Assembly: GCA_002753465.1 (NCBI GenBank)
Contig: PEAF01000002.1
Coordinates: 10,942-74,941, forward strand
Length of the DNA stretch: 64,000 bases
Source: Candidatus Omnitrophota bacterium
GTDB taxonomy: Bacteria; Omnitrophota; Gorgyraeia; Zapsychrales; Fredricksoniimonadaceae
Reading direction: 5' to 3'
Shown: one piece after another, positions 7,931-26,153 of the stretch
How positions within the stretch are numbered: the stretch's first letter is position 1
Layout: each line of letters starts with the position of its first letter
Translations under genes and position numbers: made by a program
Notes under the pieces: model-generated
Database searches by the model: none
Seen by the model: the letters and a program-made list of their open reading frames with translations, nothing else
Told to the model about the DNA's origin: nothing

Positions 7931-7968
7931 GAAAAGGTATAATATTAAAAAATAAAGGAGTTATTCCT

Positions 7969-8310: not shown

Positions 8311-8324
8311 TAGACAGCGGGCAA

Positions 8325-11155: not shown

Positions 11156-12520
11156 TTAGAGGCTAGCGTTAACGACTTCACCTTTTAGCTGATGGGGCGT
11201 CCCCTTGGTGATCCTGACATTAACAGTGTCCCCTATTTTCAAAATCATGTCAGGAACCGGCGTTAAAAGAACAATTTTATTGGCATCATTACGCCCGTAG
11301 ATCGACCCGCCTTTTTCTTTCTCCATAGATTCGATCAGAACAGGTTGAACCTGACCTACCAGCGCCTTGTTCTTTTCCAAGGATATCCCTGTTTGAAGTG
11401 TATTGATCCTGACAATGCGCCGTGTCTTAACATTTTCAGGTACATCATCAGTCATTTTTCGGGAAGCTTCTGTATTAGGACGGACAGAATATTTGAACAT
11501 GAACGCCGTATCAAATCTGACCGCCTCCATCACGCGCACCGTATCCTCAAACTCGGCATCAGTCTCTGTCGGAAAGCCAACGATCACATCCGTTGACAAT
11601 GCCATAGCAGGGCAAGCCTTACGGAGTTTGTCGACGAGGCCTTTAAAATCAGCCTGCGTATAGTTACGATTCATGACAGACAATACTCTGTCATTACCTG
11701 CCTGCAGGGGCAAATGCACCTGCTTGCAAACCTTAGGGTTCTGTGCCAGGACCTTGATCAGACTCTCAGGAAAATCTTTAGGGTGCGGTGAGGTAAATCG
11801 GATGCGATCAACGCCATCGACCCTGGATACTTGATCGACAAGGAACGCAAAATCATGCCCGTCATGTGCATACGAATTTACATTCTGCCCCAACAATGTC
11901 ACCTGCTTAAACCCTTCACCCGCCAGGCGTCTGACCTCATCGAGAATACTATCAACAGAACGGCTACGCTCCCGGCCACGTGTAAAAGGAACAATACAGA
12001 ACGAGCAGAAATTATTACACCCGCGCATCACGGCCACCCAGGCGTTCACGCCGGCAGTCCTGGTCGGATAAACATCAGCATAGGTTTCAAACTCTGACAA
12101 AGTAACATCATACCCGGTAGCATCGGTATCATGAAGGTTTTGCAGGATTTGAGGAAGGCGCTTGTAGCTGTCCGGGCCAACTACAAAATCAAGCGCCAGA
12201 TGTTTGTTATCTATGAGCTCTTTACGTAACCCTGTCGCCATACACCCGAGTATCCCAATCAAAACAGGCTTTCCTTGACGGCGATGGCGCATATCATGAA
12301 TATGTCCATAAACCTTGCGATGGGCATTCTCACGCACCGAACATGTATTAAGCATAATAATGTCAGCCTGAAGATCGTCATCAACAAAGAAATACCCGGC
12401 CTCGAGCAAGATAGCGCGCACAAGCTCCGTATCATACTCATTCATCTGACAACCGAAAGTAATGAGCGCGATACGCTTTCCGGTTTTGTCGCAACTATCT
12501 GGTCTTGCTTCACTTGGCAC
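11156..12520 (-). CDS. miaB: tRNA-i6A37 methylthiotransferase MiaB (radical SAM MTTase with TRAM domain)
   Basis: 454 aa; N-terminal ITFGCQMNEYD, radical SAM CNNFCSFC; apparent GTG start; 5' end overlaps 3' end of the recombinase gene. Confidence 0.8.
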   Translation of the reverse strand: MPSEARPDSCDKTGKRIALITFGCQMNEYDTELVRAILLEAGYFFVDDDLQADIIMLNTCSVRENAHRKVYGHIHDMRHRRQGKPVLIGILGCMATGLRKELIDNKHLALDFVVGPDSYKRLPQILQNLHDTDATGYDVTLSEFETYADVYPTRTAGVNAWVAVMRGCNNFCSFCIVPFTRGRERSRSVDSILDEVRRLAGEGFKQVTLLGQNVNSYAHDGHDFAFLVDQVSRVDGVDRIRFTSPHPKDFPESLIKVLAQNPKVCKQVHLPLQAGNDRVLSVMNRNYTQADFKGLVDKLRKACPAMALSTDVIVGFPTETDAEFEDTVRVMEAVRFDTAFMFKYSVRPNTEASRKMTDDVPENVKTRRIVRINTLQTGISLEKNKALVGQVQPVLIESMEKEKGGSIYGRNDANKIVLLTPVPDMILKIGDTVNVRITKGTPHQLKGEVVNASL

Positions 12521-14103
12521 TTTACAGCCACCCCTTCGAATAAACTTTTAAACGGCTGATACAAATCAAACTTCGTAATCCGTCCACCCTCAACGCTGAT
12601 GGACCTGAATAATAGCTTAATAAGTCCCTTTTTTCCAGCCATATCAAGATCTTCATTGATAGACTCAAAATGGTTCGCCACAGACTGGAGTAATTTGAGA
12701 TACTCCGTACTCCTTTCCTTCTCGATCATACTCAATTCATGCCTTCTGATCCTGGATCTGATGTCATTCTCTGCATGCCTTAATGGCATTATCTGATTCT
12801 TATACGCCTCTTTGGCCAGCAAACCCTCGGAGAAGATCCCGCTTAGCTTCTCTTGTCTTGAAATATTGGTACCAAGCTCGACCTTTAACTTGGCTACCCC
12901 ATCCCTGACATCTTCAGTGTAAGCTTTGGTCGCCTGCTTCAGCAACCCTTCCAGCCTGGTATCGCTAATGTCTTCCATAAAGATTAATCTGAGAACTTCA
13001 CAAATAAAACTTTCTGCCTCATCAGCCCTGACATAGCCATTCCCGCACTTCGCATTATGTTTAGCATTCCCGCAACAACGATAGTACCTTCTTTTTTCCA
13101 ATGTCTTTCGCTTTCCACCTAAGGCCGGATCTTTCTTGCTCCTCTTGGACGCAGCTAAACAGCCCTGAAAGCGAAGCCCACATACCCCACAGATCAACAA
13201 ACCAGACAATAAATAGTCCTGATTCCCCTGGCGTGTTAAGACGCCATTTCTGTTCAACGAAAGTCGTTTCTGAACAGTATCAAAATCATCCTTATGGATA
13301 ATTCGTTCATGCTCGCTATCGCCATAAATGAACTTCGACGGGTCATTCTTAACAAATTTAAAACCCTTCAGCGTCTTCTTCGTCTTGTCGTATCTTCTTC
13401 GATTCCATACAAGCCTCCCGAGATAAACCGGATTCTTCAAAATGTCACAGACAAGCTTAGTATGAAACATGCCCCCGCTTCTGGTCTTATAGCCCTTCTT
13501 ATACAGATATCCTGCGATCTGTCCGGTACTGCTTCCCGACTGATACATGAGGTAAATTGTTTTAACTACGGCGGCTTCCTCAGGAACCACCTCCAAGATT
13601 TTCTTTTCCTTATTATAATGGTAGCCGTACGGATAATACCGAGAGCCTTGCCAGTGTCCTCTCTGCACTCCCTTTATCATCCCGGGAAGAATTCTCTCCT
13701 TCAGCCGATTCCTTTCAAACTCGGCAAAGGTCCCTAGAAGCTGGAACATCAGCTTGCCGGATGAATTTGTTGTATCGAAAAACTCCGTAGCTGATTTGAA
13801 CCCAATGCCTGCCAGTTCGAGATCCTCGACCAAAGTAACAACATCCTTCAGTTTCCTTGAGAATCTGTCCAGCTTATAGACCAGAATGAAATCGAACTTC
13901 TTCTTTTTGGCATCCGCAAGAAGCCGTCTTAATGCAGGACGATCTAATGAATAGCCACTTATCCCGTCGTCTTCATAAACATTAAATACCTCATGACCTT
14001 CCTGCTTGGCATACTTGAGCAAGAATTCCCTCTGAACTTCCATGGAGAATCCTTCTCTTGCCTGATCCTCCGTCGAAACTCTTGTATAAATGGCAACTTT
14101 CAT
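12442..14103 (-). CDS. large serine recombinase (resolvase domain + recombinase domain + zinc ribbon)
   Basis: 553 aa; N-terminal VAIYTRVSTEDQ catalytic Ser motif, central recombinase domain, Cys-rich zinc-ribbon (CGVCG...CC...C). Confidence 0.85.
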   Translation of the reverse strand: MKVAIYTRVSTEDQAREGFSMEVQREFLLKYAKQEGHEVFNVYEDDGISGYSLDRPALRRLLADAKKKKFDFILVYKLDRFSRKLKDVVTLVEDLELAGIGFKSATEFFDTTNSSGKLMFQLLGTFAEFERNRLKERILPGMIKGVQRGHWQGSRYYPYGYHYNKEKKILEVVPEEAAVVKTIYLMYQSGSSTGQIAGYLYKKGYKTRSGGMFHTKLVCDILKNPVYLGRLVWNRRRYDKTKKTLKGFKFVKNDPSKFIYGDSEHERIIHKDDFDTVQKRLSLNRNGVLTRQGNQDYLLSGLLICGVCGLRFQGCLAASKRSKKDPALGGKRKTLEKRRYYRCCGNAKHNAKCGNGYVRADEAESFICEVLRLIFMEDISDTRLEGLLKQATKAYTEDVRDGVAKLKVELGTNISRQEKLSGIFSEGLLAKEAYKNQIMPLRHAENDIRSRIRRHELSMIEKERSTEYLKLLQSVANHFESINEDLDMAGKKGLIKLLFRSISVEGGRITKFDLYQPFKSLFEGVAVKCQVKQDQIVATKPESVSRSLLSVVR

Positions 14104-14438
14104 AAGCTTACGTGTCCTTTCTCTTGCTTGACATCTTGAATATCCGAATCGGTTTCCTTGCGTTTTTCTAACAGCCGATCAACACGGGCAAGGTCTGCCT
14201 GTAAGATAATCTCCAATACTGCGGATAACCTCACATATTCCTCCCCGTCCTCGTTAATAATACGTTCTTGCCGTTTTCTTGACCTTCTTGCCAAACGCCA
14301 CACACCAACCTTATCCGAGCCATACATATCCTTTGACTCTGACCACTGCTCAAACAGCTTGATCAAATCTGCATCAGGATACTTGTTCGCGTAACCGCTG
14401 AATGCCTCGGCCTGCACCACATAATCTTTTTCGTCCAT
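14100..14438 (-). CDS. hypothetical protein (112 aa), translationally coupled to recombinase
   Basis: ORF overlaps recombinase start by 4 nt; no recognizable motif. Confidence 0.4.
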   Translation of the reverse strand: MDEKDYVVQAEAFSGYANKYPDADLIKLFEQWSESKDMYGSDKVGVWRLARRSRKRQERIINEDGEEYVRLSAVLEIILQADLARVDRLLEKRKETDSDIQDVKQEKGHVSL

Positions 14439-14514
14439 TTGTTGTTATTAAACTCCACCTTGATCCTTTCGTTTCATTACTGCCGTTACTATGCGCCTTA
14501 TGCGCAAAATTTCA

Positions 14515-15327
14515 TTACACGCATTCCTCAAATGCAAAGCCACCTTCCTTAGATCCGTCCGACCACCAAGCACACTCACGACCCGCTCCATCGGGAAGCT
14601 TAAAGGCGTCAGGATGTTCTCTGCAAATCTCCTTGATCGACCGCAACCTTTTATCCCGTGTCCCCGCCGAGGCCGGCAAGGCTGAGGCCGTGACTTCTAC
14701 GTGTCTTCCTTGTTCGGGTATGCCACTATGCTGCTCGATTCGGATACCCTCCGTGTCTGGCACTCTCTGATCTACTATGTCAGCCGGAGCGCAAGCGAAG
14801 GCAGTGGTAACCAAAGGAGCAACTGCTTCTAAGCGAGCGTCAGCGAGCAATGTGTGATTAAGATCGGATATTTGAAGGTTTTCATTCTTTTGTATACTAT
14901 CTATTGTGTTATGTATTGTGTGTGGCGGTCCTGCCACCGGTAATTGCCCTGCAGGCGCCACTAGTTGAGACCTGAACGCCACTAGCTTATCCGCTTCTTC
15001 AGATGTCATTACTGGTGGCGATCCTGCCACTACCCATTGAGAATATTTCCTGTTCAAGGCATATGAATTGATGTGCCCGTGCCTCATTAAAACAATTCCT
15101 TTCCTCACAAGCGATTTTAGAGCGCCAACTTGCCGCTTCCTTTCCAACCCGGTCATTGACTGAAATTGCGAAATGCTTATCCGATCATGGCTCTTCTGAT
15201 ACCCGTATGTCTTTCTGACCAACGCCATCACGGTTCGCCATTCATTCGGGGTCAACCTCGCTTTCGCCAAATTCTCAAGTGTGGTGCTCGATATCCTCGT
15301 GAAATATTTCTTTTCCTTCTCTTCCAT
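14515..15327 (-). CDS. phage replisome-organizer/replication initiator O-like protein (N-terminal wHTH)
   Basis: N-terminal region (FTRISSTTLENLAKARLTPNEWRTVMALVRKTYGYQK...ISISQFQSMTGLERKRQVGALKSLVRKGIV) resembles Phage_rep_org_N domain; C-terminal half low complexity. Confidence 0.45.
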   Translation of the reverse strand: MEEKEKKYFTRISSTTLENLAKARLTPNEWRTVMALVRKTYGYQKSHDRISISQFQSMTGLERKRQVGALKSLVRKGIVLMRHGHINSYALNRKYSQWVVAGSPPVMTSEEADKLVAFRSQLVAPAGQLPVAGPPHTIHNTIDSIQKNENLQISDLNHTLLADARLEAVAPLVTTAFACAPADIVDQRVPDTEGIRIEQHSGIPEQGRHVEVTASALPASAGTRDKRLRSIKEICREHPDAFKLPDGAGRECAWWSDGSKEGGFAFEECV

Positions 15328-15361
15328 TTTTCTCCATCCTTATCTTGTACCGATTTCCTGT

Positions 15362-15547
15362 TCAGACATCGCCCCGACCCTTGCTCTTCACCCACGAAGC
15401 AACGACGTCGGGATCGAAGCGAACCAGTTTCCCCAGTTTGCTATGGGGGATCTTACCCGTCTCGGCCCACCAGTAAATTGTGGTCCGGCTCACTCCAAGA
15501 CATGCTGCTACCTCGTCGACGTTTAAAAACTTCTTCTCCATACTCAT
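15362..15547 (-). CDS. excisionase/AlpA-like HTH_17 DNA-binding protein
   Basis: Start MSMEKKF with AGGAGG SD; LNVDEVAACLGVSRTTIYWWAETGKIPHSKLGKLVRFDPDVVASWV matches excisionase-family HTH. Confidence 0.6.
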   Translation of the reverse strand: MSMEKKFLNVDEVAACLGVSRTTIYWWAETGKIPHSKLGKLVRFDPDVVASWVKSKGRGDV

Positions 15548-16100
15548 TGTGCTTCCTCCTTCTGGGGACAAAACAGTCCCGCCACGAAGCATAATTGCTC
15601 CGCGTATTAAGTCTTATTTCTTGTTGGGATTTACTAACGATGAATCCGTGGTGTGGGGCAATATGAAGCAGACGTTTCTTTACCCTACAATTGCATTATA
15701 CTACTAAACAGGCACATTCCTCAACCACGACTTTGAAATATTTTTTACAGCGACGGAGTATTAACGTTCTACCCTCTTGGGAAATGACCTTTATTTGAGC
15801 ATTTATCCCGATCAATCTGCCTTAATCGAGCGTTTTCTCTGAACCCTGAGCAAAACAAAGGGTTAAAGGAAATGCTACCCAAGCGACCAGTGAGTGCTGG
15901 CGGCTTTAAGCATTTCCCCGGAGCCCTTTTACGATAACGATATGGACGATCGCATGCTCTTCCAGTCCTAAAATAACTCCTGTTATTTTCCATTTGATCC
16001 CTCCGATGTTAATCACTCCCTGATAAATGGATCTATTCGCATCTCAGGAGGGCTTAGCGGCCTTGAGAATGCCGCTAAATCCCATGGACACCTTCTACCC

Positions 16101-16856
16101 CTACCATTTCCTGCACAGTTCGCGATAACCGCACCAAGAACAAGTCTGCTTATTCTCACAGGGATACAGGGTCCCCGATTGGATCGCCTTGCTTACAAAT
16201 CCCAGGACCTTCAGGAATCGGCGAATATCATCCTGCGTCCGTGTGGTCGGGATCTGCTGGAGCTTCGGGACCTTGGTCTTGACCATTACGTCAAACCGCA
16301 GTTCCTTTTCCGGCACTCCGAATAGCGTCCGATATGCCAACGCATAGCATGTCAGCTGAATGTCCGATCCAACATCTTCCGGGTTCATGCTTCGTTTTGA
16401 GGTTTTATGATCGATGATCGTACCCTCCACATCCACGAGATCAATGATCCCCTTGAGCGTGTAACTGACGTTCGCAAAAATCAAATTAAACTCATGCTCA
16501 ACGAGCCTCGGCTGAATGGTTGGAGATATCTGGCCATGATAGGCTGTGACCATCTTGACTCCATCATCCTTAACAGTTCCAGCCTTCTCATCCATGTCGA
16601 AGACCGTCTCTTTAACTTCCTGCTCCCATCGATCTGAGAACAGATCCAATACCTTCTCCGCAGGAAGATCCTGCTTACTTGTGATCTTCTGCGAGTAGTT
16701 GGCCTCCAACGCCGAGTGGATTGACTTGCCAAGGGTCAGCGATCCCGTTGGCGGTATCTTCAACCCGTCGATATACCGGAATTGATATTGCAAGGGGCAC
16801 CTGAGGAACATCTTAATCTGTGAGACCGATAAGTGTTTGCTTTCCATGGGACACAC
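16101..16856 (-). CDS. PD-(D/E)XK nuclease, Cas4/RecB-like exonuclease with Fe-S Cys cluster
   Basis: 251 aa; N-terminal Cys (CPLQYQF), catalytic block IDLVDVEG...IIDHKTSK, C-terminal CxxxxCSWCxxxxxC. Confidence 0.6.
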   Translation of the reverse strand: MCPMESKHLSVSQIKMFLRCPLQYQFRYIDGLKIPPTGSLTLGKSIHSALEANYSQKITSKQDLPAEKVLDLFSDRWEQEVKETVFDMDEKAGTVKDDGVKMVTAYHGQISPTIQPRLVEHEFNLIFANVSYTLKGIIDLVDVEGTIIDHKTSKRSMNPEDVGSDIQLTCYALAYRTLFGVPEKELRFDVMVKTKVPKLQQIPTTRTQDDIRRFLKVLGFVSKAIQSGTLYPCENKQTCSWCGYRELCRKW

Positions 16857-16924
16857 TCCTTTAGTTAAAAGAAAGACGGCAGGCCCCCGGTTGCCCGAAG
16901 ACCTGCCGTCCGATTGCTTATGGT

Positions 16925-17344
16925 TTACGCTGTAACAGCCAACATCTCCTCGATCACCTTACTCGCCGAGGCCATGCTCATCTCATTAACTCCTTCGATG
17001 AACTGTCTACGTTCCTTGGCAAGCTTGATGATGAGAGACTTCTGCTTTGGCGAGATCGGAGCCTCTGGATCCTTTGGATGAGGCTTACCATTTCCATTAC
17101 CATTGATAGGCTTCCCATTGCCATTAGCGTGCTTCTTAGGCTCAGGAATGACCACATCCTCCCTATGCGGCTCACCCTGATTACCCGTCGGATTGACCTG
17201 CCTACTAATGGCCCTTTTTGCCATAGAGAACAGCTCGTCCACGACGCCATCAGCTTGCTCCTTTGCAACATCACCGGAAGTTTCAAAACTGACTTGGTAA
17301 CTGTCACCGTTGCTTCTGTAACTGTAATTAGCAAGAATACGCAT
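16925..17344 (-). CDS. hypothetical protein with NG-rich linker (139 aa)
   Basis: Protein-like composition; NGNGKPINGNGNGKP repeat linker; alternate-frame 144-aa ORF is Arg/Ser-rich and rejected. Confidence 0.4.
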   Translation of the reverse strand: MRILANYSYRSNGDSYQVSFETSGDVAKEQADGVVDELFSMAKRAISRQVNPTGNQGEPHREDVVIPEPKKHANGNGKPINGNGNGKPHPKDPEAPISPKQKSLIIKLAKERRQFIEGVNEMSMASASKVIEEMLAVTA

Positions 17345-17389
17345 TTGATCCTCCTTGTTGTTAGAAACTGTTGAGTTTGATTTAGAACA

Positions 17390-17752
17390 TTACGCATGCG
17401 ATTTACATTCACAGCACTCTCCTTTCTGCCACCCCTGGGCTTTTCGAATCAGGTCGACCTCAATGGCCTTCCTGGGTGTAAAAAAGAGATCCCGATCAAT
17501 CTCCAGAAACAGCATCTTGATCTGGTCCAGTTCCTCCAGGCTGAAATAGCCCCATTCGGCCATATCCAGATTGCCGTTTAAGACCACAAAGCCAAAGAAA
17601 GTCTGGCTTGCGGGATCATATTCAGCAGCGTACCAGTCACACCCGCCAATGAAGAAATGAAGATGGATGATCTTCTCCTTCAATGGCACGCTCTCCGTCG
17701 TGTAGAAGGCTGGCAATTGAGCCAGCTCCTGCTTTGTTGGCTTATTCCACAT
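17390..17752 (-). CDS. DUF2958-family protein
   Basis: HFFIGGCDWYAAEYD...FFGFVVLNGNLDMAEWGYFSLEEL...RDLFFTP matches DUF2958 signature; likely start MWNKPTKQEL. Confidence 0.55.
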   Translation of the reverse strand: MWNKPTKQELAQLPAFYTTESVPLKEKIIHLHFFIGGCDWYAAEYDPASQTFFGFVVLNGNLDMAEWGYFSLEELDQIKMLFLEIDRDLFFTPRKAIEVDLIRKAQGWQKGECCECKSHA

Positions 17753-17942
17753 GGTCTGTTCCTTTCTGTTCGCAGACATAAAAAAAGACACCCTCTTGGG
17801 TGCCTGTCTCATGCCTCTGGTTTAGCTGTGACTTCTTAGTAGATGTCCTTACTCCACCGCCAGTAACTCAGGAAACTGGACATCCCTCGTCCACTCCTGA
17901 AGCTATGACGGTATGCAAAGTAGATCCTCTTAACAATGTGGT

Positions 17943-18209
17943 TCATGCGGCCTCCTTCTGGTAATGATTAACAACCACCGTAGAGAAATCCTCATACGTG
18001 GACGCGTTCTTACACACGACCTGATCGTACCACTGGTTATCTTTACCCTGCTCCTGCGGCATGGAGACGAAGATCCCCTTCTTACCAGCGAGCAGACGCA
18101 CTCCCTTGATAACAAGAACGTCATTAATCGAGACATCTGCGAACGCCTTCAATGATCCGGCGTCCGGTAGACGGTACATCTTCTCGACAGTGAATTTAAC
18201 TTGGCTCAT
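17943..18209 (-). CDS. SpoVG-family protein
   Basis: MSQVKFTVEKMYRL...SLKAFADVSINDVLVIKGVRLLAGKKGIFVSMPQ colinear with SpoVG; AGGAGG SD before MSQV start (alternative upstream start at 18269 also has an SD). Confidence 0.55.
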   Translation of the reverse strand: MSQVKFTVEKMYRLPDAGSLKAFADVSINDVLVIKGVRLLAGKKGIFVSMPQEQGKDNQWYDQVVCKNASTYEDFSTVVVNHYQKEAA

Positions 18210-18292
18210 GACTTCCTCCTTGTTGTTGGTTGCTGAAACAGTTTGAACGGTTTCCTTTGCTTTCCTCATACTCGCCTCCTTGTGATTGGTTA

Positions 18293-18457
18293 TTAGAATT
18301 TCCCGAGATAACAACTTCCACAATCGGTGTTATTGCCTTCGCGCTGACAGACTGAACACACCGGCACCCTGCCTGCGCCTCTCAGGCCTTCACCGAGAAA
18401 CTCCTCCAGGAGTTCGGTCATCGGCCTTTGGTATGCCTGCTCGACTAGGCTCTCCAT
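18293..18457 (-). CDS. hypothetical small CxxC...CxxC protein (54 aa)
   Basis: MESLVEQ... start preceded by AGGAGG SD; two CxxC pairs; C-terminal part of a longer, likely spurious 148-aa ORF. Confidence 0.35.
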   Translation of the reverse strand: MESLVEQAYQRPMTELLEEFLGEGLRGAGRVPVCSVCQREGNNTDCGSCYLGKF

Positions 18458-18801
18458 ATCTTTCCTCCTTTCTGATACTGGACCATTATTCTTGGGAACA
18501 CAGGTACGCGGCCAAACAGCCGATACCAATCCAACACAACGCCCTTGATGCCTTCTTTTTGGATGTGCCACAAGGCGTACAGTCCAAACACAACAGAAGC
18601 AGCAAGGTTGCATATCCCCACAAAGCTGGCCACACCAGTGAACACAGTTATTAAACCCGAACCAGCGAAGTCCATAACAAACGCCAGCATTGGGTTCGCA
18701 AACATGATGTGCCGAAACTTGAGTGGGAATATTCCCCACAGGCTAATGTGGATCACGCTCATGATGATCGTGACGATAATAAATCCAACAGCGTCGAACA
18801 T
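18445..18801 (-). CDS. small integral membrane protein (3-4 TM)
   Basis: Start MFDAVGF with GGAGGTG SD; hydrophobic helices throughout. Confidence 0.5.
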   Translation of the reverse strand: MFDAVGFIIVTIIMSVIHISLWGIFPLKFRHIMFANPMLAFVMDFAGSGLITVFTGVASFVGICNLAASVVFGLYALWHIQKEGIKGVVLDWYRLFGRVPVFPRIMVQYQKGGKIWRA

Positions 18802-18844
18802 ACAGATCACCTCCTTTCCATGTTTGATTTTGTTAACGAGTAGA

Positions 18845-18888
18845 CACAAAAAATCCCTTGTCAGTGTCAGAGTGACACCAACAAGGGA
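18845..18888 (-). terminator. rho-independent terminator (minus strand) ending the AT-rich cargo block
   Basis: Stem TCCCTTGT/ACAAGGGA with inner palindrome GTGTCA..TGACAC, followed on minus strand by TTTTTTTGTG. Confidence 0.5.
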
Positions 18889-19013
18889 TGTAATTGAGAC
18901 CCCCCTGGGGCACGAAACGAAGATTATTTCAGACTATATAATGACTAGGAACCTGCAGGAATTTTTTAGAGAAATTTTCGGGGAATAAGAAATTTATAGC
19001 AGCGACGCGCGCA

Positions 19014-19526
19014 CTAGTTAATTAAATTTTCCAGAACTCTTTGAGGGATAAAGCCATCATGCAAGGCCGCTTCAATATAAACAGATTGCTTGGTCGGCAT
19101 TCTGTCTGACTTTGAAGCGACTTCCTTTTTCTGCATCAATTCTGCGAACTTAACGACAGGGAGAGCTGCCACTTTTTTCATCCCATTACCATTGTCGCGC
19201 ATCTTACTTAATAAATCTTGCCTTAAAATCGGCTCAACATCACCCACATCAATATATGATCTCTCCGCCCTTAAATGCGCTTCGTGCAAATCTTCCCATT
19301 GATGCCTTTCGACAACAATGGTCAACGCGGGATTGCACGCATGTGGCTTTGAAGTTAAAGGAAAAAACGGATAAAAGATTAGGGTTGGATGAAAATCTAA
19401 AATCTTTCCTACTAATTTATATTTGCGTTTAACGATTGGGTTATGAGGATCTTTAGACTTGGCGTCTAAATGAATATTTCTAGTTTGGATTCTAGAAATT
19501 AAGTCTTCATCGGAAAGATTACGCAC
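19014..19526 (-). CDS. hypothetical protein (170 aa), candidate toxin partner of Panacea-domain protein
   Basis: Overlaps upstream Panacea-domain gene by 8 nt; no recognizable motif. Confidence 0.45.
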   Translation of the reverse strand: MRNLSDEDLISRIQTRNIHLDAKSKDPHNPIVKRKYKLVGKILDFHPTLIFYPFFPLTSKPHACNPALTIVVERHQWEDLHEAHLRAERSYIDVGDVEPILRQDLLSKMRDNGNGMKKVAALPVVKFAELMQKKEVASKSDRMPTKQSVYIEAALHDGFIPQRVLENLIN

Positions 19527-19989
19527 ATCCTAAATCCAGTTTTTCATTCAAGTGCTCACGTCCGCCTAAGGTTGCGCCGATTCTCACCATTGGGGCTGTT
19601 TGATACGCGATATCAGTGAGCGCTTTGGCGCCGTAGCCTCTTAACTTCTCTAACACTTCATCGATTAACGAATATTCCTCTTCAGAAATCAGTTCAGAAA
19701 CACCCTGCTGATCACCATCAGATTGATAAATTACATATTCATCCCCGGAATAAGCATACTCCGTCTTCGACTTAACGACCCCTTCACTCTGCAAAGCAGT
19801 TAACAAAGTATAAATTTTGTCATCATAAGGTCCATAATAATATCGCACATAGGAAAACTCGGATATGGGCTTCCCTGTCTTTTTAACACTCACCACATCA
19901 ATTAAATAACACAACTTCAGCAAGCTGGTGAGCGAGGCCGTTATGTGCCTTTTGATTATATAGGCTAATAGACTTTTCGTCTTTTCCAT
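19519..19989 (-). CDS. Panacea-domain (DUF4065, SocA/PanA-like) antitoxin-like protein
   Basis: MEKTKSLLAYIIKRHITASLTSLLKLCYLIDVVSVKKTGKPISEFSYVRYYYGPY matches DUF4065/Panacea N-terminal signature. Confidence 0.55.
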   Translation of the reverse strand: MEKTKSLLAYIIKRHITASLTSLLKLCYLIDVVSVKKTGKPISEFSYVRYYYGPYDDKIYTLLTALQSEGVVKSKTEYAYSGDEYVIYQSDGDQQGVSELISEEEYSLIDEVLEKLRGYGAKALTDIAYQTAPMVRIGATLGGREHLNEKLDLGCA

Positions 19990-20117
19990 TTGATTTAATG
20001 ATACCTTATTCAACTTTTTAGTAAAGAAGTTACAAATAAATAAACAAAAACACATTATCTCTTGTGGGTCGCCCCGGGAGACAAGCCGTGAGCTGTCTTA
20101 GATTAAATGTGGCAACC

Positions 20118-20765
20118 TCAAACATCCCAACGAAAACTTTTATAAACTCGCATAAGATCATCAAAAGCGAAATCCCCATACTTAATTGGTGAAATTAAAT
20201 CGAGAAGTAATACATGTTTACCTGAAAGGGCGCTTTCACAGGGTATCATGATAGTTGCGTGGAATCTTTCGTCTCCATCTGAAAATCTCCCTTTTACTGT
20301 AAGCAATGCGCCTTTAATGCCCGCATCATTATTTTGAGCAACATCGGCCTTGCCTCCTCCATCAATATTTTCAATCAAATGCTCGGTTTTCTTAGTAAAT
20401 ATTGCCTCATAGTACTGCTCAAATGTTTCATTTGCTTTTACACTTACAATTTGGACTCGTAAATTACTATGTAACTCTTGGCACATAAACCTATAATCAA
20501 AGAAATTATCAGGATTATGTTCGGGATCAATCATCGAATTCAATAACCCTCTTGAAATAAACCAAATATATTTACAATCTTTGAAAGACATTTGATATTT
20601 AAAATATCGGCCTTTAATATCGCCAACTTTCTTGAAAAGAAGACTAAATGCTATAGGATGTGGCGGCTTATTCTTCCCGCCCATCGTTGACAAATCAGTC
20701 CCACAGTGCTTGCAAACTGTCGCGGCATCCTGAATCTCTTCAATACAAAAAGGACATTTTCTCAT
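20118..20765 (-). CDS. hypothetical protein with N-terminal zinc ribbon (CPFC...CKHC)
   Basis: 215 aa; CxxC-x13-CxxC at N-terminus, remainder unrecognized. Confidence 0.45.
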   Translation of the reverse strand: MRKCPFCIEEIQDAATVCKHCGTDLSTMGGKNKPPHPIAFSLLFKKVGDIKGRYFKYQMSFKDCKYIWFISRGLLNSMIDPEHNPDNFFDYRFMCQELHSNLRVQIVSVKANETFEQYYEAIFTKKTEHLIENIDGGGKADVAQNNDAGIKGALLTVKGRFSDGDERFHATIMIPCESALSGKHVLLLDLISPIKYGDFAFDDLMRVYKSFRWDV

Positions 20766-20807
20766 CTAATTTCATCCCTTTCTACTTACCAATGTTCTTG
20801 TTCAAGA

Positions 20808-21419
20808 TCACAACCCAAATTCACTCTTTAGCACAGCATTCTTCTCTTGATTTAAGCGCTGCTTATCTAACTCCACCTCATTATGAATAATATTAAACGC
20901 AGAAATAATATCTTCTACCCACTCCCCGTGGATAAAACAATCAGGTTCAGCGTTTATCTCCCAGTATGAGGAGCCGGACTTTCTAATGACTCCGTCCAAA
21001 GCGAACTCATAAACTTTCTTATTCTCAACCAATAATCTAAAAGCGCCATATTTTTTTACGCCTAAGAATGAAGACTTACGAAATAGAAAATCGAAAGCCC
21101 TGTTATTTATCATCATTCTTCGACAATCATTAAAGCCTTTCACATCAGGATTGCTTTGATACTTCATCCAAAACCCAAAGTCATAGCTAAAACTGTTTAA
21201 ATCTTTCGGCTTGTTCTTTTCATAATATTGCGACCGTGCATGGCATATTTTCTTGCCAACAACCACAAGGTCGGTGTGTGTCTGACCAAAATCAGACCCC
21301 CAATCGTAAAGCCTAAACATAATTTCACTCAACTTCAAACTTTTAGCCTTCTCTTTCAAAAGACGTATTTTTTCTTTGAGCTCCACTTCAGATACCAATT
21401 CCTGTCCATCGCTAGTCAT
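20808..21419 (-). CDS. hypothetical protein (203 aa), third gene of 3-gene operon
   Basis: 3-nt gap to upstream gene; coiled-coil-like N-terminus; no known motif. Confidence 0.45.
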   Translation of the reverse strand: MTSDGQELVSEVELKEKIRLLKEKAKSLKLSEIMFRLYDWGSDFGQTHTDLVVVGKKICHARSQYYEKNKPKDLNSFSYDFGFWMKYQSNPDVKGFNDCRRMMINNRAFDFLFRKSSFLGVKKYGAFRLLVENKKVYEFALDGVIRKSGSSYWEINAEPDCFIHGEWVEDIISAFNIIHNEVELDKQRLNQEKNAVLKSEFGL

Positions 21420-21421
21420 AA

Positions 21422-22222
21422 CTATTTTCCCTTCCTGACACCAATACGATATTTAATCGGCATCTTCGGGTCGCGTTCTACCTCAGGAATGCCAACTATC
21501 ATCGCGGGGTATGTCAACTTTAAATCAACCAACGTCACAAAAACTTCCTCTGAAAATTCAAACAAATTCGACCACAACACATTTAAAAAATCTTCAATCT
21601 TTTGGTTGTTAACAGTTGGAATCAAGACTTGGCCCTTGCCAGAAGAATCAATCTTGTAATTTATCATCGGCAAATTAAACCCATTATGCTCAATCTCAGT
21701 ACGAATTTCCCTGAATAACGCATACCATTGACGATCATCCCTAAGCATCTTTACAAACTCTTTGAGCCGCGAATCTTCCCCTCGGCCCAAAATTGACTGT
21801 AACCCCTTCTCAAAGGCAGGATCTTTCTGGAAAAAGAACCCAATGGGATAACCCATAAATGCAGAAAGCTTATCAAGACATTGAAGCGATATTCGTCCTT
21901 TTATAAAAAAATCCTTAAAATTACGATTCAGCTCTTGGGCAATGCTCTCTCTTACCGTCCAAGCATTATTTTGCCCTTCAATTATTTCTCCTGAACTAAT
22001 CTTTCTTGAATGATCATCAATAAGACGAGCACATTCTTTAAATGCCTGTCTACACTCCGCTAAATTATTAAATAAAGGCTCGTATAATCCATCGAACTCT
22101 TTGATCTGAACCTCGCCGCACATCACAAAATTCCTTAACTCCAAATTTTGACACATCATTCTAGCAAAAAAAGGATCAGCAGTTCCCTCGTCAGAAATCT
22201 TTTGTATTAGGAACGGCTTCAT
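21422..22222 (-). CDS. hypothetical protein (266 aa), second gene of 3-gene operon
   Basis: Overlaps lipoprotein gene by 4 nt; no known motif. Confidence 0.45.
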   Translation of the reverse strand: MKPFLIQKISDEGTADPFFARMMCQNLELRNFVMCGEVQIKEFDGLYEPLFNNLAECRQAFKECARLIDDHSRKISSGEIIEGQNNAWTVRESIAQELNRNFKDFFIKGRISLQCLDKLSAFMGYPIGFFFQKDPAFEKGLQSILGRGEDSRLKEFVKMLRDDRQWYALFREIRTEIEHNGFNLPMINYKIDSSGKGQVLIPTVNNQKIEDFLNVLWSNLFEFSEEVFVTLVDLKLTYPAMIVGIPEVERDPKMPIKYRIGVRKGK

Positions 22223-22710
22223 TTATACTTAATCGCCTTTGCCTTTATGTTTATAACTTTTTGTGATGTTGTCTCAGAAACAGGCATTGTCCCTACAGTG
22301 TTCCCATACGCGTCTTTTACTGATTCTTGTGTTATATCCGTATCTGTCCTGCTTCCTAATGATGTTTGAATATCCATTAAACCATCAGCCCCAATATTTC
22401 TTGCTTTCGTTTCCAATAATGGCCTCAGGTTGCTATCACGAATAACATACCCCATAACCTCACCTATCACTTCATACGGCTTCTGAGGTTTGTCTCCAAA
22501 AAACAAATCAATCGGATAGTCCTTTGTCTGAGGGGGATAGACACTCTTGTTGTAATTAACAAATGACAGCTGCCTATTAGCTGCAGAACCACCAAGCAGA
22601 TTGCCAAGAAGACCGCCGGATTCAGTAGCGCACCCAGTAGTCAAGACAACCAAAGCCAACAAACAAAAGATTTTTCTCATAATAACAGTCCTCTCCTTTT
22701 CGACGACCAT
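22219..22710 (-). CDS. hypothetical lipoprotein, first gene of 3-gene operon
   Basis: Signal peptide with lipobox MRKIFCLLALVVLTTGC (true start probably ~22680). Confidence 0.5.
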   Translation of the reverse strand: MVVEKERTVIMRKIFCLLALVVLTTGCATESGGLLGNLLGGSAANRQLSFVNYNKSVYPPQTKDYPIDLFFGDKPQKPYEVIGEVMGYVIRDSNLRPLLETKARNIGADGLMDIQTSLGSRTDTDITQESVKDAYGNTVGTMPVSETTSQKVINIKAKAIKYK

Positions 22711-22855
22711 AACTCTATACTTCTAAGCCTTCTTCTCCACAAATACTCTAATATCTGAATCAACAAATTTTGTGGATATTGTATCATCTGCGACGATATT
22801 CACAAACCGGAATTTTCCGCACACCCAGACATTCAGGCATTATGTCGGGTCACAG

Positions 22856-22893
22856 AAACAAAAAAGCCTGATCCCATATCTGGAACCAGGCGC
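22856..22893 (-). terminator. putative rho-independent terminator (minus strand) after the 236-aa gene
   Basis: GCCTG...CAGGC stem followed on minus strand by TTTTTTGTTT. Confidence 0.35.
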
Positions 22894-22930
22894 TGAGTAT
22901 TTCCTCTAAAAACCAAACATGCTGCTTTCT

Positions 22931-23641
22931 CTATGCCCCTTCCTTCGTGTTTTTCGACTTGATTGATTCTTTCATAAACTCAGCAAAAAGATTTCCCATT
23001 ATTTCAGAGACGGACAGGCCATTAATCTTTTCCTTGCTAACAAGATGCTTTGCTTGTGCCATAATCTTCTCAACTGGAGATCCAATGGCAAGAAGATCAT
23101 CATATGTCCTATGGGCGGCATTTCTTGCGATAAGATAACCGCAAAGATAGGCCGCTCCAATAACAGAAGACACATGAACAACTTGTTCATCAGTAAGTGC
23201 CTCCGGCATCATCGATGATTCGGCCTGAATAAATCTATTTACTTCATTAAAAAAGATCGGTTCTGCTTCGGCCAGAAACTTTAATATTTCTCGACCCTTC
23301 TCTGCGTCGGCAAGCGTCCCGTGAACATCCTGTATAATCTCCCGCGTTACGCTGTGCTCACCATGGCTTTTATTTAAATGCTTCAGTGGCGTCTCTTCTT
23401 CTGCCTCATCTTGTAAAGCAACGCCCTCCTCATCAGGCATCGGCCCATCACTTATTTTCTCCACATGTACATCAGCAATAGCTTGAATATCGCCGTCGTC
23501 TTTTAAATCTTCTAAAACATTATGAGCTAACAATTCAATCGCATGTTCCTCACAAGTTGCTTCAAGATCATATTCAATATGTGCCGAGACCGTCCATGTC
23601 TTCCGATCCTGTTCCATAAAACCCCCTGCGTTATTCCTCAT
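22931..23641 (-). CDS. hypothetical acidic protein (236 aa)
   Basis: Long ORF, highly acidic N-terminal half; no motif recognized. Confidence 0.4.
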   Translation of the reverse strand: MRNNAGGFMEQDRKTWTVSAHIEYDLEATCEEHAIELLAHNVLEDLKDDGDIQAIADVHVEKISDGPMPDEEGVALQDEAEEETPLKHLNKSHGEHSVTREIIQDVHGTLADAEKGREILKFLAEAEPIFFNEVNRFIQAESSMMPEALTDEQVVHVSSVIGAAYLCGYLIARNAAHRTYDDLLAIGSPVEKIMAQAKHLVSKEKINGLSVSEIMGNLFAEFMKESIKSKNTKEGA

Positions 23642-23651
23642 TTATTCGCGT

Positions 23652-23728
23652 TAACAGGTTCAAAATGTTCATGCGCCAACGTGACCAATCGTCAACCAAA
23701 GGTCTGGAGATACACTTTATTATTCATT
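23652..23728. repeat. direct repeat copy A (~77 nt, ~80% identical to copy B) downstream of FkbM gene
   Basis: Alignable with 24792-24865: TAACAG(G/A)TTCAAAAT...CGCCAACG...CAATCGTCA...TTCATT. Confidence 0.6.
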
Positions 23729-23749
23729 TTGTTATTATCAAGATCATGT

Positions 23750-24493
23750 TTATTGCTTGGGAGAAAAATACCAGTTTAATGGATCATACGGTAAATATTT
23801 ATCAATCCGCTCGTACCCGTACTTTTGAAAATAATCCAGAATCTTTTTGCTTGTCCGGCGGGCATGTTCAATACAAACAAGTTCAGGTCTGAATTTCTTA
23901 ATATTAAAGCCTGCCAAGGCCTCGGGCTCCCCGCCTTCAATATCCATCGAAAGGAAATCTATCTTTGATACTCCATTCTGATCTAGTAAAGCATCAAGGG
24001 TAATGGCCGGAGCTTCTTGCTGTTTTATATTAGGACTCTGGATATGGTGGTATTTCACAGAAGCTTTCAAGAACCTTACATTTGCTGAAGAAAGTGCTTT
24101 TGCATTTAAAAGTGCGAAAAACGGTTCATTATTAGCCGAATGGTCAGTGACAATGAATCTGAAAAACCTGGTTTTCGGCCGATATTTTAAATACGCATCC
24201 GCATACTCAGCCAGGGCGTCAACCGCTATGCCTGCCCAGCCAAGATGTTGCTCAAGATAATACGTCGTGCTCATGTCTTTATAATCCGCGCACCCTACAT
24301 CAAGAAAAACACCGTTGGAACGGTCATTGAAGAAATCTCGGATTATAAGCTCTTCATTATATTGCGAGTAGAGCTTAACCCCATTATCGAGAATCTCACC
24401 TGCAATGGCATTGTCTTTATGCGCCCAAGGAACGATCTCGTTTACTAAAAATAAATTTAATATAGTAATGAAAATCACAATTATCTTATTCAT
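23750..24493 (-). CDS. FkbM-family methyltransferase
   Basis: 247 aa; VFLDVGCADY SAM-binding motif and FkbM hallmark IDFLSMDIEGGEPEAL; N-terminal hydrophobic segment. Confidence 0.65.
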   Translation of the reverse strand: MNKIIVIFITILNLFLVNEIVPWAHKDNAIAGEILDNGVKLYSQYNEELIIRDFFNDRSNGVFLDVGCADYKDMSTTYYLEQHLGWAGIAVDALAEYADAYLKYRPKTRFFRFIVTDHSANNEPFFALLNAKALSSANVRFLKASVKYHHIQSPNIKQQEAPAITLDALLDQNGVSKIDFLSMDIEGGEPEALAGFNIKKFRPELVCIEHARRTSKKILDYFQKYGYERIDKYLPYDPLNWYFSPKQ

Positions 24494-24791
24494 TAATGCA
24501 ACTTTTCTTCCCTGTCATCATAATATTAAATTTATCCAACACCCAAATTGGGGACAGTTGAAGTACTTTAAACTCCCAATCCTTGATCTTACCCCAATAT
24601 TGACGCGGAGTCGGGCTGTCAGTTAAAGCCTCTACCACATCAACAACACTGAAAAACCATTCATTCTCATGAAAGACTCGCCTGATCTTCTATACTCAAA
24701 CACAACAAGCGATTTATTTTTATCCATAAACCTTCTCCAAGGTTTTAATCAAGATCGTGAAACTTTCTACTCTTTTTCGCTTATCTTCTGT

Positions 24792-24865
24792 AACAGATTC
24801 AAAATCATCCCACGCCAACGCGAACAATCGTCAGCCGATAGTCTGAAGAAATATATTTTTCATTG
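24792..24865. repeat. direct repeat copy B (~74 nt), ~10 nt 3' of ABC ATPase stop
   Basis: See copy A; both copies begin immediately 3' of a minus-strand gene stop. Confidence 0.6.
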
Positions 24866-24874
24866 ATCCTGCCA

Positions 24875-25720
24875 TTACCTAACTTTCGCTGGTGCTCTTA
24901 ATGCGTAATAATACCCATCCTTGATATTAATATCGACGGGCGTGCCGAACAACTTACTGACATTCTTTCCCGTCAAAACAGCCGACTTATCCCCATCCAT
25001 ACAGAACTTGCCATCTTTCATCAGAACAACCCGCCCTATTTCAGGAATGATGTCGGAAAGATTGTGCGTAACAAGAATAATGCTCGTGCCTGATCGAGCT
25101 ATCTTACGAAGCATGTCTGTGAACTTGTAAAGGGCATGAAGATCCAGGCTTGTCGTAGGCTCGTCCAGTATCAATGCTTTGGGGTCATGGACCAAAGCCC
25201 TTCCGATCAAAAAACGGCGAGCTTCACCTGAAGACATCTCATTCATTTTCCTATGCTTCAGGTGATCGATCTCAAGAAATTCAATAACCCTTCCAGCCTT
25301 CTTCTTCATGGCAGGAGTCAGGCGCTCCTTGAACAAACCGATGCTACTAAAAAACCCTGACAAAACAACTTCAAGTCCAGTTATATCTCTCGTACAAACG
25401 TGTTGAAGGTCATTGGATACTATCCCCAGCAATTTCCTCAGCTCGGAAATATTCCATCGTTCCTGACCTAATATCCTGCATGAACTAGCCCTGTCATCTT
25501 TCAGGACCGGATAATACTCGCGTGTTATAACTTTGATCAAAGAAGACTTACCCGCGCCGTTGGGGCCCAAAATAGCAAGATTATCGCCTTCATAGATCTT
25601 AAGGGATATCGAATTAAGAACCTTGGCCTTCACTCCTTTAAGAACAGTGAGATCTTTGAATTCTAATAAAGGGACTTCCTGGTCGTTCATATTTTTAAAC
25701 TCACTTACCAATATCTTCAT
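24875..25720 (-). CDS. stand-alone ABC transporter ATP-binding protein
   Basis: 281 aa; Walker A GPNGAGKSSL, signature MSSGEARR, Walker B LILDEPTTSLD. Confidence 0.75.
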   Translation of the reverse strand: MKILVSEFKNMNDQEVPLLEFKDLTVLKGVKAKVLNSISLKIYEGDNLAILGPNGAGKSSLIKVITREYYPVLKDDRASSCRILGQERWNISELRKLLGIVSNDLQHVCTRDITGLEVVLSGFFSSIGLFKERLTPAMKKKAGRVIEFLEIDHLKHRKMNEMSSGEARRFLIGRALVHDPKALILDEPTTSLDLHALYKFTDMLRKIARSGTSIILVTHNLSDIIPEIGRVVLMKDGKFCMDGDKSAVLTGKNVSKLFGTPVDINIKDGYYYALRAPAKVR

Positions 25721-26153
25721 TCCAAAGGGCAGGAGATTTTTTAATGAATGATTCCATCATTTGGATACATTCAGCGTCCTGGAGAACATCGATCGAAACA
25801 CCACTCTGTCGCAACAGGCCCTCCGCCCCCAGGAATGTTTTATTCTCACCTATAACCACACGGCGTATTCCATAAAGAAGCATTGTCCCTGCACACATCA
25901 TACAAGGGGAAAGTGTTGTGTACATTATGCAGTCCCGATAAACAGCTGCATTTTGACGACCCGCATTCTCCATGGCATCAGTCTCACCATGTAAAATAAC
26001 ACTGTTTTTTTGGACCCGGCGATTATGGCCGCGACCGATGATCCTGCCTTTATACACCAGAACGGCACCAATAGGTATGCCACCCTCAACGAGGCCGGCC
26101 TTAGCCTCCTCTATAGCTTCCTTCATAAAACTATCCATAAAACTCCATAACAA
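25701..26153 (-). CDS. cytosine deaminase, yeast Fcy1-type (CDA fold)
   Basis: 150 aa; HGETDAMENAGR...YTTLSPCMMCAG zinc motifs and C-terminal WNEDIGK colinear with Fcy1-type cytosine deaminases; overlaps ABC ATPase start. Confidence 0.6.
   Translation of the reverse strand: MLWSFMDSFMKEAIEEAKAGLVEGGIPIGAVLVYKGRIIGRGHNRRVQKNSVILHGETDAMENAGRQNAAVYRDCIMYTTLSPCMMCAGTMLLYGIRRVVIGENKTFLGAEGLLRQSGVSIDVLQDAECIQMMESFIKKSPALWNEDIGK

Follow-up and report, generated by a model that had tools for sequence, protein, structure and literature searches.

A probable composite island placed by a large serine recombinase within the miaB gene of an Omnitrophota bacterium

Several described systems resemble, each in part, the genomic island driven by a large serine recombinase (LSR) that is analyzed here. 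The staphylococcal cassette chromosome elements (SCC and SCCmec) are likewise LSR-driven islands, with Ccr recombinases, in the coding end of a conserved RNA-modification gene that is kept intact; they, too, form tandem composites with internal attachment (att) sites and recombinase-less partners, and carry defense-type cargo (PMC11470126). The dusA-specific islands and prophages (DAI) insert themselves into a tRNA-modification gene at its 5' end, for which they bring an element-borne replacement (PMC4482086). In the integration-dependent immunity of mycobacteriophage BPs, attP lies in a coding gene, and integration alters the C-terminus of the product, giving state-specific isoforms (PMC4557955, PMC3694055). 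Each of these arrangements has a counterpart in the stretch of DNA examined here, 64,000 nucleotides of contig PEAF01000002.1 from Candidatus Omnitrophota bacterium (positions 10,942 to 74,941; assembly GCA_002753465.1), hereafter the window, to which all coordinates refer. With good confidence, we read positions 12450-24833 as a 12,382-bp composite genomic island that was placed by an LSR through site-specific recombination within the coding sequence of the tRNA-modification gene miaB. To our knowledge, mobile elements of uncultured Omnitrophota bacteria are almost unknown, and in the literature consulted we found no report of miaB as a target of a serine recombinase, nor of a natural attP within the open reading frame (ORF) of a serine integrase. 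An initial annotation had described an island at 12442-24870 with the recombinase flush against miaB. Its boundaries come within about 10 and about 40 bases of the junctions derived here (12450 and 24833), and the contact is real, but the last 79 nt of the recombinase ORF overlap the miaB ORF and the island lies inside the gene, not beside it. Three features had escaped that annotation: the rebuilding of miaB by the island, the internal att site that makes the island a composite, and the place of its recombinase in a large clade that shares this target.

The recombinase gene (12442-14103, minus strand) encodes, in its short, integrated form, a protein of 553 amino acids (aa) with the Pfam domains Resolvase (E = 3e-40, spanning all 145 positions of the profile), Recombinase (E = 1e-21) and Zn_ribbon_recom (E = 9e-11). 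It matches PHROG 95, integrase (E = 2e-117), and contains the catalytic motif YTRVS10TEDQ with Ser10. The insertion point is codon 11 of miaB. In the rebuilt miaB (11156-12520, minus strand), residues 1-23 (VPSEARPDSCDKTGKRIALITFG) are encoded by the element, and the host sequence takes over from Cys24 on. The product scores above the TIGR01574 cutoff (457.7 versus 355.3 bits) and contains the UPF0004, Radical_SAM and TRAM domains (Pfam). The sole possible start of the gene is the GTG at 12520, and the N-terminus is about 14 aa longer than those of empty-site homologs, which begin MK[KR][IV][FY][LI]xT[FY]GCQMN. The LSR stop, TGA at 12444-12442, sits within the host CAG-ATG-AAT that codes for part of the conserved C-Q-M-N of MiaB. 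The element ORF (LSR) and the core ORF (miaB) are co-directional and overlap, and therefore the junction between element and host lies inside a coding sequence.

This junction, attR (12425-12476, minus strand), is arranged as P arm-TG-B' arm, and we place the crossover at 12451-12450, on the TG with which the Cys24 codon of the conserved G-C-Q-M-N motif opens. In the MiaB alignment, Cys24, Cys60 and Cys93 are invariant; from what is known of methylthiotransferases, they are the ligands of the N-terminal Fe-S cluster, with Cys24 the first of them. The P arm (...GGAAAGCGTATC...ACTTTCGGT) is kept in six occupied sites, the window included. In the proposed mechanism, integration joins the remainder of miaB to this arm, which is the 3' end of the LSR gene and, in a second frame, contains a start codon at the head of about 23 codons that run up to ...KRIALITFG, so that MiaB stays full-length. 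The new 23-codon N-terminus is open in all six occupied sites, and the starts that it replaces are left behind as relics at 24863 and 23727.

At the far end, integration strands the first 10-11 native codons of miaB, and the P' arm (TG|AC...) creates an immediate TGA stop. Two such structures are present, both on the minus strand. The outer junction, attL1 (24813-24863), carries a relic of the native miaB start: GGCAGGA, which resembles a ribosome-binding site, then ATG at 24863, MKNIFLQTIG and the stop TGA at 24833-24831, with the TG at 24833-24832 and the P' arm GGCTGACGATTGTTCGCGTTGGCG. This relic begins 11 nt past the stop of the host ABC-ATPase gene (24875), with which miaB was probably co-transcribed before the insertion. 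The internal junction, attL2 (23674-23727), contains a relic miaB-type start (ATG at 23727, MNNKVYLQTFG, stop TGA at 23694-23692), with the TG at 23694-23693 and the P' arm GGTTGACGATTGGTCACGTTGGCG. In both, the TGA that ends the relic consists of the shared TG and the first base of the P' arm, and both relics run directly into GGYTGACGATTGKTCRCGTTGGCG, a motif found at exactly these two places of the window (0.00 expected). The pattern of the native MiaB N-terminus has likewise only two matches in the six frames of the window, versus 0.005 expected per shuffle. The two attL sites form the longest direct repeat of the island (70 nt, 74% identical, 1,139 nt apart).

The common ground of attL1, attL2 and attR is only (T)xGG-Y-TG. 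The sites are thus of the kind used by LSRs, that is, short and imperfectly symmetric, with a small non-palindromic core and no long direct repeats of host DNA. Exact repeats of at least 13 nt between the junction region and the upstream sequence are absent, and a comparison of the junction with 14-50 kb for exact repeats, direct or inverted, turned up only 10-12-mers. A repeat pair at 43989-44011 was considered as an att site and rejected, being located inside a plus-strand ORF. The reverse complement of the P arm occurs in the window at chance level; in L082, one of the relatives described below, its count is above chance and revealed no site.

The same junction recurs in relatives. A search with the LSR yielded 2,310 homologs at E <= 1e-20, many of them from Omnitrophota, and the contexts of eight homologs were fetched with their DNA. 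In five of the eight (L081, L082, L083, L165 and L170), the LSR stop is a TGA within the CAR-ATG-A that codes for part of the G-C-Q-M motif of a UPF0004/radical-SAM gene; the LSR of L081 is 88% identical to that of the window, and those of L082, L083 and L165 are 57%, 55% and 53% identical. These five occupied relatives share the conserved upstream sequence AAAGTGCCAA...GGAAAGCGT and an open miaB frame that starts with GTG or ATG. Two further contigs, available as gene lists only, show the LSR-MiaB adjacency together with the same backbone gene order. The large group of Omnitrophota elements to which the island belongs has apparently not been described before.

The position of the crossover was derived from an element in another state. 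In L171, whose LSR is 58% identical to that of the window, the P arm continues not into miaB but into ...ACCTACGGT-TG-ACCGTAGGTTACGTTGG, which resembles the P' arms of the window, and the site is a perfect 8+4+8 palindrome, ACCTACGG-TTGA-CCGTAGGT, with its axis on the TG; L171 carries an unrecombined attP. The attP reconstructed for the window (P arm, TG and the P' arm of attL2, P'2) agrees with its own mirror image, taken about the TG, in 10 of 19 positions by manual count. Because of this dyad symmetry in L171 and in the reconstructed attP, the crossover was placed at the TG in all three junctions of the window. The target, attB, is the DNA that codes for ...T-[F/Y/I]-G-C-Q-M-N-E-Y, with the crossover most likely at the TG of the Cys codon. 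The empty junction would then read CAGACTATCGGCTGTCAGATGAATGAG, and the native attB would be TTCTTCAGACTATCGGC-TG-TCAGATGAATGAGTATGA.

All three att sites of the window are on the minus strand and in direct orientation, and they divide the island into two units. The inner one, of 11,243 bp, consists of the LSR, the backbone and an AT-rich cargo. The outer one is a remnant of 1,139 bp without a recombinase, which consists of an FkbM-family methyltransferase (23750-24493, minus strand; Pfam Methyltransf_21, E = 5e-16), the sole intact gene of the remnant, and a pseudogene fragment, the frameshifted short ORF at 24494-24760 (minus strand; three-frame translation, no Pfam match), and nothing else. 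For this fragment, a resemblance to Bro-N/DinD-type genes was considered, was not confirmed by Pfam and was dropped. The presence of two attL-type junctions, each with its own P' arm and B-type relic, means that integration at a miaB site took place at least twice. On its left side, attL2 has an arm of the host (B) type that even resembles the native spacer between the ABC-ATPase gene and miaB. Either an earlier element may have rebuilt an attB-like site that a second element then used, or attL2 may be a scar captured in a previous host and now passenger DNA. Excision by attL2 x attR or by attL1 x attR would restore an intact miaB either way. The predicted attP-type junction carries ...CATTACTTTCGGTTGACGATTG...; the attP of the 11.2-kb element would be CGCGCTCATTACTTTCGGT-TG-ACGATTGGTCACGTTGGCG, that of the whole island would have the same left half joined to TG-ACGATTGTTCGCGTTGGCG, and the residual site after excision of the inner unit would be CTCCAGACCTTTGGT-TG-TCAGATGAATGAG.

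The most serious competitor of the composite reading, to which we give a minor yet appreciable probability, is that of a single 12.4-kb element, in which attL2 is a scar from an earlier host, left when excision went through an older attL-type site farther upstream and carried as passenger DNA from then on, and only the attL1 x attR pair is now in use. The host-type left arm of attL2 speaks for it, as this arm differs from the ABC-miaB spacer mostly by G-to-A changes; the same can be said of the P'1 arm of attL1, which also keeps an intact tail ORF, and of the established chemistry of LSRs, for which recombination between attP and attR is not expected. However, attL2 is as well preserved as attL1, with the full 24-nt P' motif and an open tail frame, and its excision, too, leaves an intact miaB (MNNKVYLQTFG-CQMN...); moreover, whichever history holds, integration at a miaB site must have happened twice.

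Several observations weigh against our reading of a composite island placed within miaB by its recombinase. Under the canonical chemistry of LSRs, which recombine attP with attB only, the host-type left arm of attL2 requires an extra assumption. The crossover dinucleotide was deduced from dyad symmetry, and although TG is favored, GG or CG in the shared TCGG, 1-3 bases leftward, would be possible. An empty site from a near relative, the check proposed by the initial annotation, was not found, the nearest MiaB being 61% identical among genome contigs and 59% among metagenome contigs, so that attB is reconstructed rather than observed. Exact look-ups of the MiaB and the LSR of the window and of protein P0121 returned no record. 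The attL structure is seen in the window alone, albeit twice there; the far-end junctions of L165, L082 and L170 were not located, and the 10 kb upstream in L082 and L170 contain no P' motif. Promoter-like matches are no commoner than expected by chance, no circular form of the window element was observed, and no directionality factor was identified, the candidates (14100-14438 and 15362-15592) being such by position only. Finally, the functions suggested for the cargo are drawn from resemblance of domains or of a modeled fold, and PADLOC recognizes no known defense system there. The gene order upstream of miaB shows no conserved synteny in L001-L006 or L165.

The location of attP, about 20 codons before the LSR stop, has a consequence for the recombinase. 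In the recombinase frame, the P' arm of attL2 encodes DDWSRWRMNILNLLTRINEE and that of attL1 encodes DDCSRWRGMILNLLQKISEKE, each followed by a stop. Joined across the TG to P'2, the window LSR becomes a 571-aa protein ending ...SVDDWSRWRMNILNLLTRINEE; joined to P'1, it becomes a 572-aa protein ending ...SVDDCSRWRGMILNLLQKISEKE. The free element would accordingly encode a 571-aa LSR with a conserved tail, and the integrated element encodes the 553-aa form that ends in V-V-R. Thus, integration exchanges the LSR tail of about 20 residues for three host-encoded residues, and the same stretch of about 75 nt is, in another frame, the new start and the first 23 codons of miaB. Among the 120 best LSR homologs, 93 end in [VADG][VA][RK], for which the background 3-mer frequency is 0.0066; with a stop after it, this ending is what GGN-TGY-CAR-ATG-A encodes in the LSR frame. 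Of the other 27, about 20 have tails of 18-30 residues past the junction. The open tails of 20-21 codons that either P' arm provides in the window resemble those of a subset of homologs, namely P0026 (...SAGRWCKYRDIILAILKGLSDLE), P0116, P0021 and P0003.

The LSR tail may have a function. More speculatively, and we would not bet on it, attP inside the LSR gene might serve as a built-in state sensor, with a long, tailed LSR when the element is free and a short one when it is integrated. In such a scheme, the long form has the conserved tail of about 20 residues, in which charged and hydrophobic positions alternate (...RW.R..IL.LL..I[ST][DE]), and the short form ends in three residues read from the Cys-Gln-Met codons of the host. 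Depending on the tail, the enzyme would be shifted in activity, stability or directionality; the long form might, for instance, be integration-competent and the short form excision-competent or silent. A sensor of this kind would be the serine-recombinase counterpart of integration-dependent immunity, with the addition of a dual-frame surrogate N-terminus of MiaB, and would operate in the setting of a large, Omnitrophota-centered clade that targets a near-universal bacterial sequence. We know of no LSR system in which a state-dependent change of the LSR C-terminus has been addressed, and the arrangement described here poses that as a testable question.

A related configuration was noticed in the complete genome of Candidatus Velamenicoccus archaeovorus (CP019384.1; L164:9900-11800). 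Here, an LSR 49% identical to that of the window has a long tail of the attP-state type (...SVGRCLPYRHSMADLAEALIGAD) and an attP-like ACCATCGGTTGGCCGTTG, adjoins a Na+/H+ exchanger gene, not miaB, and has RepO and HTH_17 genes upstream. This element may have integrated by other means, or it may be a resident, unrecombined copy.

All named genes of the island lie on the minus strand (ORF list of the window), including those of the backbone, which in the direction of transcription lies upstream of the recombinase gene. Beside the LSR gene, a 112-aa protein without a family match (14100-14438) is a candidate directionality or regulatory factor: its homologs lie at or near the LSR gene in L081, L082, L083, L165, where the element is a minimal one of about 3 kb, and L166, and genes for 112-aa proteins occupy the same position in the two gene-list contigs. 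Next comes a replication initiator with a lambda O-like N-terminal domain (14515-15327; Pfam Phage_rep_O, E = 6e-17; TIGR01610 above cutoff). Its gene contains two near-identical 16-nt palindromes, GTGGCG(G/A)TCCTGCCAC, at 14922-14937 and 15015-15030, 93 nt apart (repeat family D19), which are a possible origin. A 12-nt tandem repeat (14898-14921) beside the palindromes has an iteron-like look, as in a lambda-type origin inside the O gene. The excisionase-like, HTH_17 DNA-binding protein (15362-15592; E = 3e-14 in Pfam; PHROG 66, "excisionase and transcriptional regulator") is followed by a PD-(D/E)XK, Cas4-like exonuclease (16101-16856; Pfam PDDEXK_1, E = 3.5e-34; PHROG 69, exonuclease), which is 83% identical to its homolog in L081. 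The rest of the backbone (16925-18849) consists of a 139-aa ORF (16925-17344), a DUF2958 gene (17390-17812), a SpoVG-like gene (17943-18323) and a 134-aa ORF (18445-18849). The 139-aa, SpoVG-like and 134-aa ORFs, three of these four, have homologs in L081 with 53-68% identity; the DUF2958 ORF has no match in L081 and is found in the same gene order in the two gene-list contigs. Across the backbone as a whole, the amino acid identity to L081 is 53-89%, and that of the flanking host genes is 52-85%.

The backbone is separated from the cargo by a terminator-like hairpin (18853-18889, minus strand; 17-bp stem with 7 GC pairs and a T-run; inverted repeat I22), and the two parts differ in composition. 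The GC content is 0.472 in the backbone (12450-18852), 0.396 in the cargo (18853-23693), 0.388 at 23694-24832 and 0.456 in the host flanks. The island genes, the terminator at about 18.85 kb and the AT-rich block are, then, present as initially annotated, and the GC profile suggested there as a check sets the cargo apart from both backbone and host. No RNA family was found within the island with Rfam. Because of the RepO-like gene with its two internal palindromes, the autonomous element was judged probably able to replicate after excision, and the excised circle would replicate via RepO; the closest-fitting short description is probably that of an integrative element for which replication after excision is likely.

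The assignment to other element classes was examined with Pfam and PHROGs. In agreement with the initial annotation, there is no capsid, terminase or portal gene, and no tail or lysis family either, in 12442-24870 or in the next 10 kb, which consists of ordinary cellular genes; the locus does not qualify as a prophage. No relaxase, coupling-protein or type IV secretion system family was detected in the island, which does not sustain the label of an integrative mobilizable island offered by that annotation. Homologous LSRs in L082 and L171 belong to elements that carry Replic_Relax. The likeness to dusA-type islands is by analogy, as the recombinase is of the serine type and no tyrosine integrase of the DAI family is present.

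The other label of the initial annotation, a phage satellite similar to phage-inducible chromosomal islands or P4 and in need of a helper phage, would require that the unidentified ORFs include helper-sensing or capsid-hijacking functions. The general plan fits, with 11-12 kb, an integrase with a replication initiator, a Xis-like regulator, accessory cargo and no virion genes, and nine ORFs without a family assignment leave space for functions that went undetected. We nevertheless consider a satellite improbable: no small terminase subunit, capsid-scaffold or head-size protein, pac/cos family or other packaging or capsid-redirecting gene was found with PHROGs, and nothing links the island to a helper; searches of IMG/VR gave no close relative of the LSR, the nuclease or RepO, and the P-arm pattern tested there had no exact match; and L082, at miaB, and L171, in the attP state, have plasmid-type Replic_Relax genes instead. 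Three matches to the P' motif in IMG/VR were set aside as unrelated chance matches. Both labels, satellite and mobilizable element, are thus unproven. Less probable still is a decayed prophage or an immobilized remnant, with a relic backbone and a cargo of ordinary host accessory DNA. Such decay would account for the lack of transfer and packaging genes, the pseudogene at 24494-24760 would fit it, and the recombinase-less 1.1-kb segment does show that decay occurs at the locus. However, every backbone ORF is intact, most at 53-89% identity in a second lineage, the LSR still has its catalytic motif and its three domains, the tail frame of 20-21 codons is open in both P' arms, and about one-fifth of the close homologs are in the attP state, so that the family is actively mobile. 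Finally, a chimeric metagenome contig that artificially joins the element to miaB, an idea invited by the metagenome-assembled genomes of the closest relatives and by contigs that often break at the cargo border, can practically be dismissed, because six assemblies of different origin, one of them with a contig of 3.36 Mb, show the same LSR-miaB junction, and the reading frames are coherent on both sides of each junction.

Next to the hairpin, the cargo of this composite island has a candidate toxin-antitoxin pair (19014-20055), in which an orphan 170-aa ORF (19014-19526) lies downstream of, and overlaps by 8 nt, a gene for a Panacea-domain protein (19519-20055; Pfam SocA_Panacea, E = 1e-16, 62.3 bits versus a cutoff of 25.7). 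The 170-aa partner matches no family in Pfam, PADLOC, PHROGs or NCBIfam, has one non-self homolog among 5.8 billion clustered proteins, and its structure model has a mean confidence (pLDDT) of 41, too low for use. Beside the pair lies an operon (20118-22710), with a zinc-ribbon protein (20118-20765), a 203-aa ORF (20808-21419), a 266-aa HEPN-like protein (21422-22222) and a 163-aa ORF (22219-22710); the last has an N-terminal hydrophobic stretch ending TTGC, by eye a possible lipoprotein signal. The HEPN-like fold of the 266-aa protein was recognized in an AlphaFold2 model with a pLDDT of 95, and R174 and H179 of its R-x4-H motif are invariant in 41 sequences; neither a HEPN model of Pfam nor PADLOC or NCBIfam matches it, and Foldseek searches against PDB and BFVD returned nothing significant. 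This domain is often the C-terminal part of proteins of 620-670 aa (P0158-P0275) in which the N-terminal approximately 360 residues have no Pfam match, one weak match to DUF6602 being the only Pfam result for these fusion relatives, which look like an uncharacterized two-domain family. The first gene of the 11.2-kb element (22931-23641) encodes an acidic protein of 228-236 aa without a family match and is followed by a terminator-like hairpin (22891-22866). For ten ORFs of unknown function, NCBIfam returned nothing. The Panacea pair may be an addiction module, and the product of the HEPN-like gene may be a toxin or an effector of abortive infection; the anti-phage or addiction role initially proposed for the cargo has some backing in this pair and in the HEPN-like fold with its R-x4-H motif, but not in any PADLOC system.

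The relatives bear other cargo. Among the gene-list contigs, an AAA_15/AAA_21 ATPase occupies the same slot; L082 carries a Replic_Relax gene and, at 4280-8834, E2-CBASS and ThiF (E1-like) genes and a gene for an 804-aa protein; and in L171, which also has the Replic_Relax gene noted above, a nucleotidyltransferase gene adjoins P'. Around the LSR of L166 (9021-9987 and 14729-18028), there are HEPN/nucleotidyltransferase genes, two ThsB_TIR genes and GmrSD; in L166 as in L082, genes of a recognizable defense type thus adjoin the recombinase. Contigs of relatives (L081:1-520 and the two gene-list contigs) repeatedly end at the border between backbone and cargo, which suggests strain-level heterogeneity of the cargo in the samples. 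Upstream of the minimal LSR element in L165 (8730-8815), the sequence GTGTTTAACA / TGTTAAACA occurs three or four times, with copies in each orientation, and has an operator-like look.

The host ABC-ATPase at the island border (24875-25720) is a stand-alone gene without an adjacent permease and has partial PADLOC matches to mad3 (E = 3e-22) and AriA (E = 4e-13). It is overlapped by the gene of a second, weaker TadA-like deaminase (25701-26153). A genuine tadA gene at 37838-38431 (above the NCBIfam cutoff) lies 50 nt from a gene for tRNA-Arg(ACG), the known substrate of TadA. A dihydrouridine synthase (31468-32436) is one of the few plus-strand genes of the window and is adjoined by genes for an SxtJ-like protein and a carbamoyltransferase on the minus strand (32615-34848).

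The locus allows a target, attP, attB and crossover to be assigned to a whole clade of serine recombinases from sequence alone. The target, the coding sequence of G-C-Q-M-N, is conserved in every MiaB homolog compared, and these enzymes could therefore be tried as broad-host-range integration tools with a predictable landing site. It is also a case of coding economy, in which about 75 nt do triple duty: they encode the tail of a recombinase, give an Fe-S enzyme its start codon and surrogate N-terminus, and act as a half-site for recombination.

Among the described systems, those related to the cargo and to the composite structure can be compared first. In the Panacea (PanA) toxin-antitoxin systems, the gene of a Panacea-domain protein likewise overlaps that of a small partner (PMC8832971); the partner in the window differs in having no recognizable toxin domain and almost no homologs. 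With the HEPN toxins, the 266-aa protein shares a HEPN-like fold and the R-x4-H motif while matching none of their Pfam, PADLOC or NCBIfam models. Accretion of recombinase-less partners is the subject of the concept of cis-mobilizable elements (CIME). Three direct att sites, an autonomous and a recombinase-less unit and the potential for joint or separate excision are features that the window shares with CIME-type accretion and with tandems of phages with integrative and conjugative elements (ICE) (PMC13651849). The CIME and phage-ICE tandems rely on tyrosine recombinases with identical core repeats, whereas a second integration by an LSR needs a regenerated attB-like site.

The position of attP within the recombinase ORF is also a trait of the SSV-type archaeal integrases. 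SSV integration splits the gene of the tyrosine integrase into two inactive parts; in contrast, only the last approximately 20 codons are exchanged in the window, and the catalytic and DNA-binding domains stay intact. In BPs, a tyrosine recombinase serves as integrase, the gene that is split encodes the repressor, and the tail that is lost works as a degradation tag, whereas here the affected protein is the LSR itself. The DAI differ from the island in their tyrosine recombinases, a longer shared core, a replacement that no alternative frame of the integrase gene encodes, and their hosts, which are Proteobacteria. CcrB of SCC is the best NCBIfam match of the window LSR, far below its cutoff (222 versus 900 bits). 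SCC targets the 3' end of rlmH and the island targets the 5' end of miaB, and the attP inside the recombinase ORF, the RepO-type replication module and the Omnitrophota host further set the island apart from SCC.

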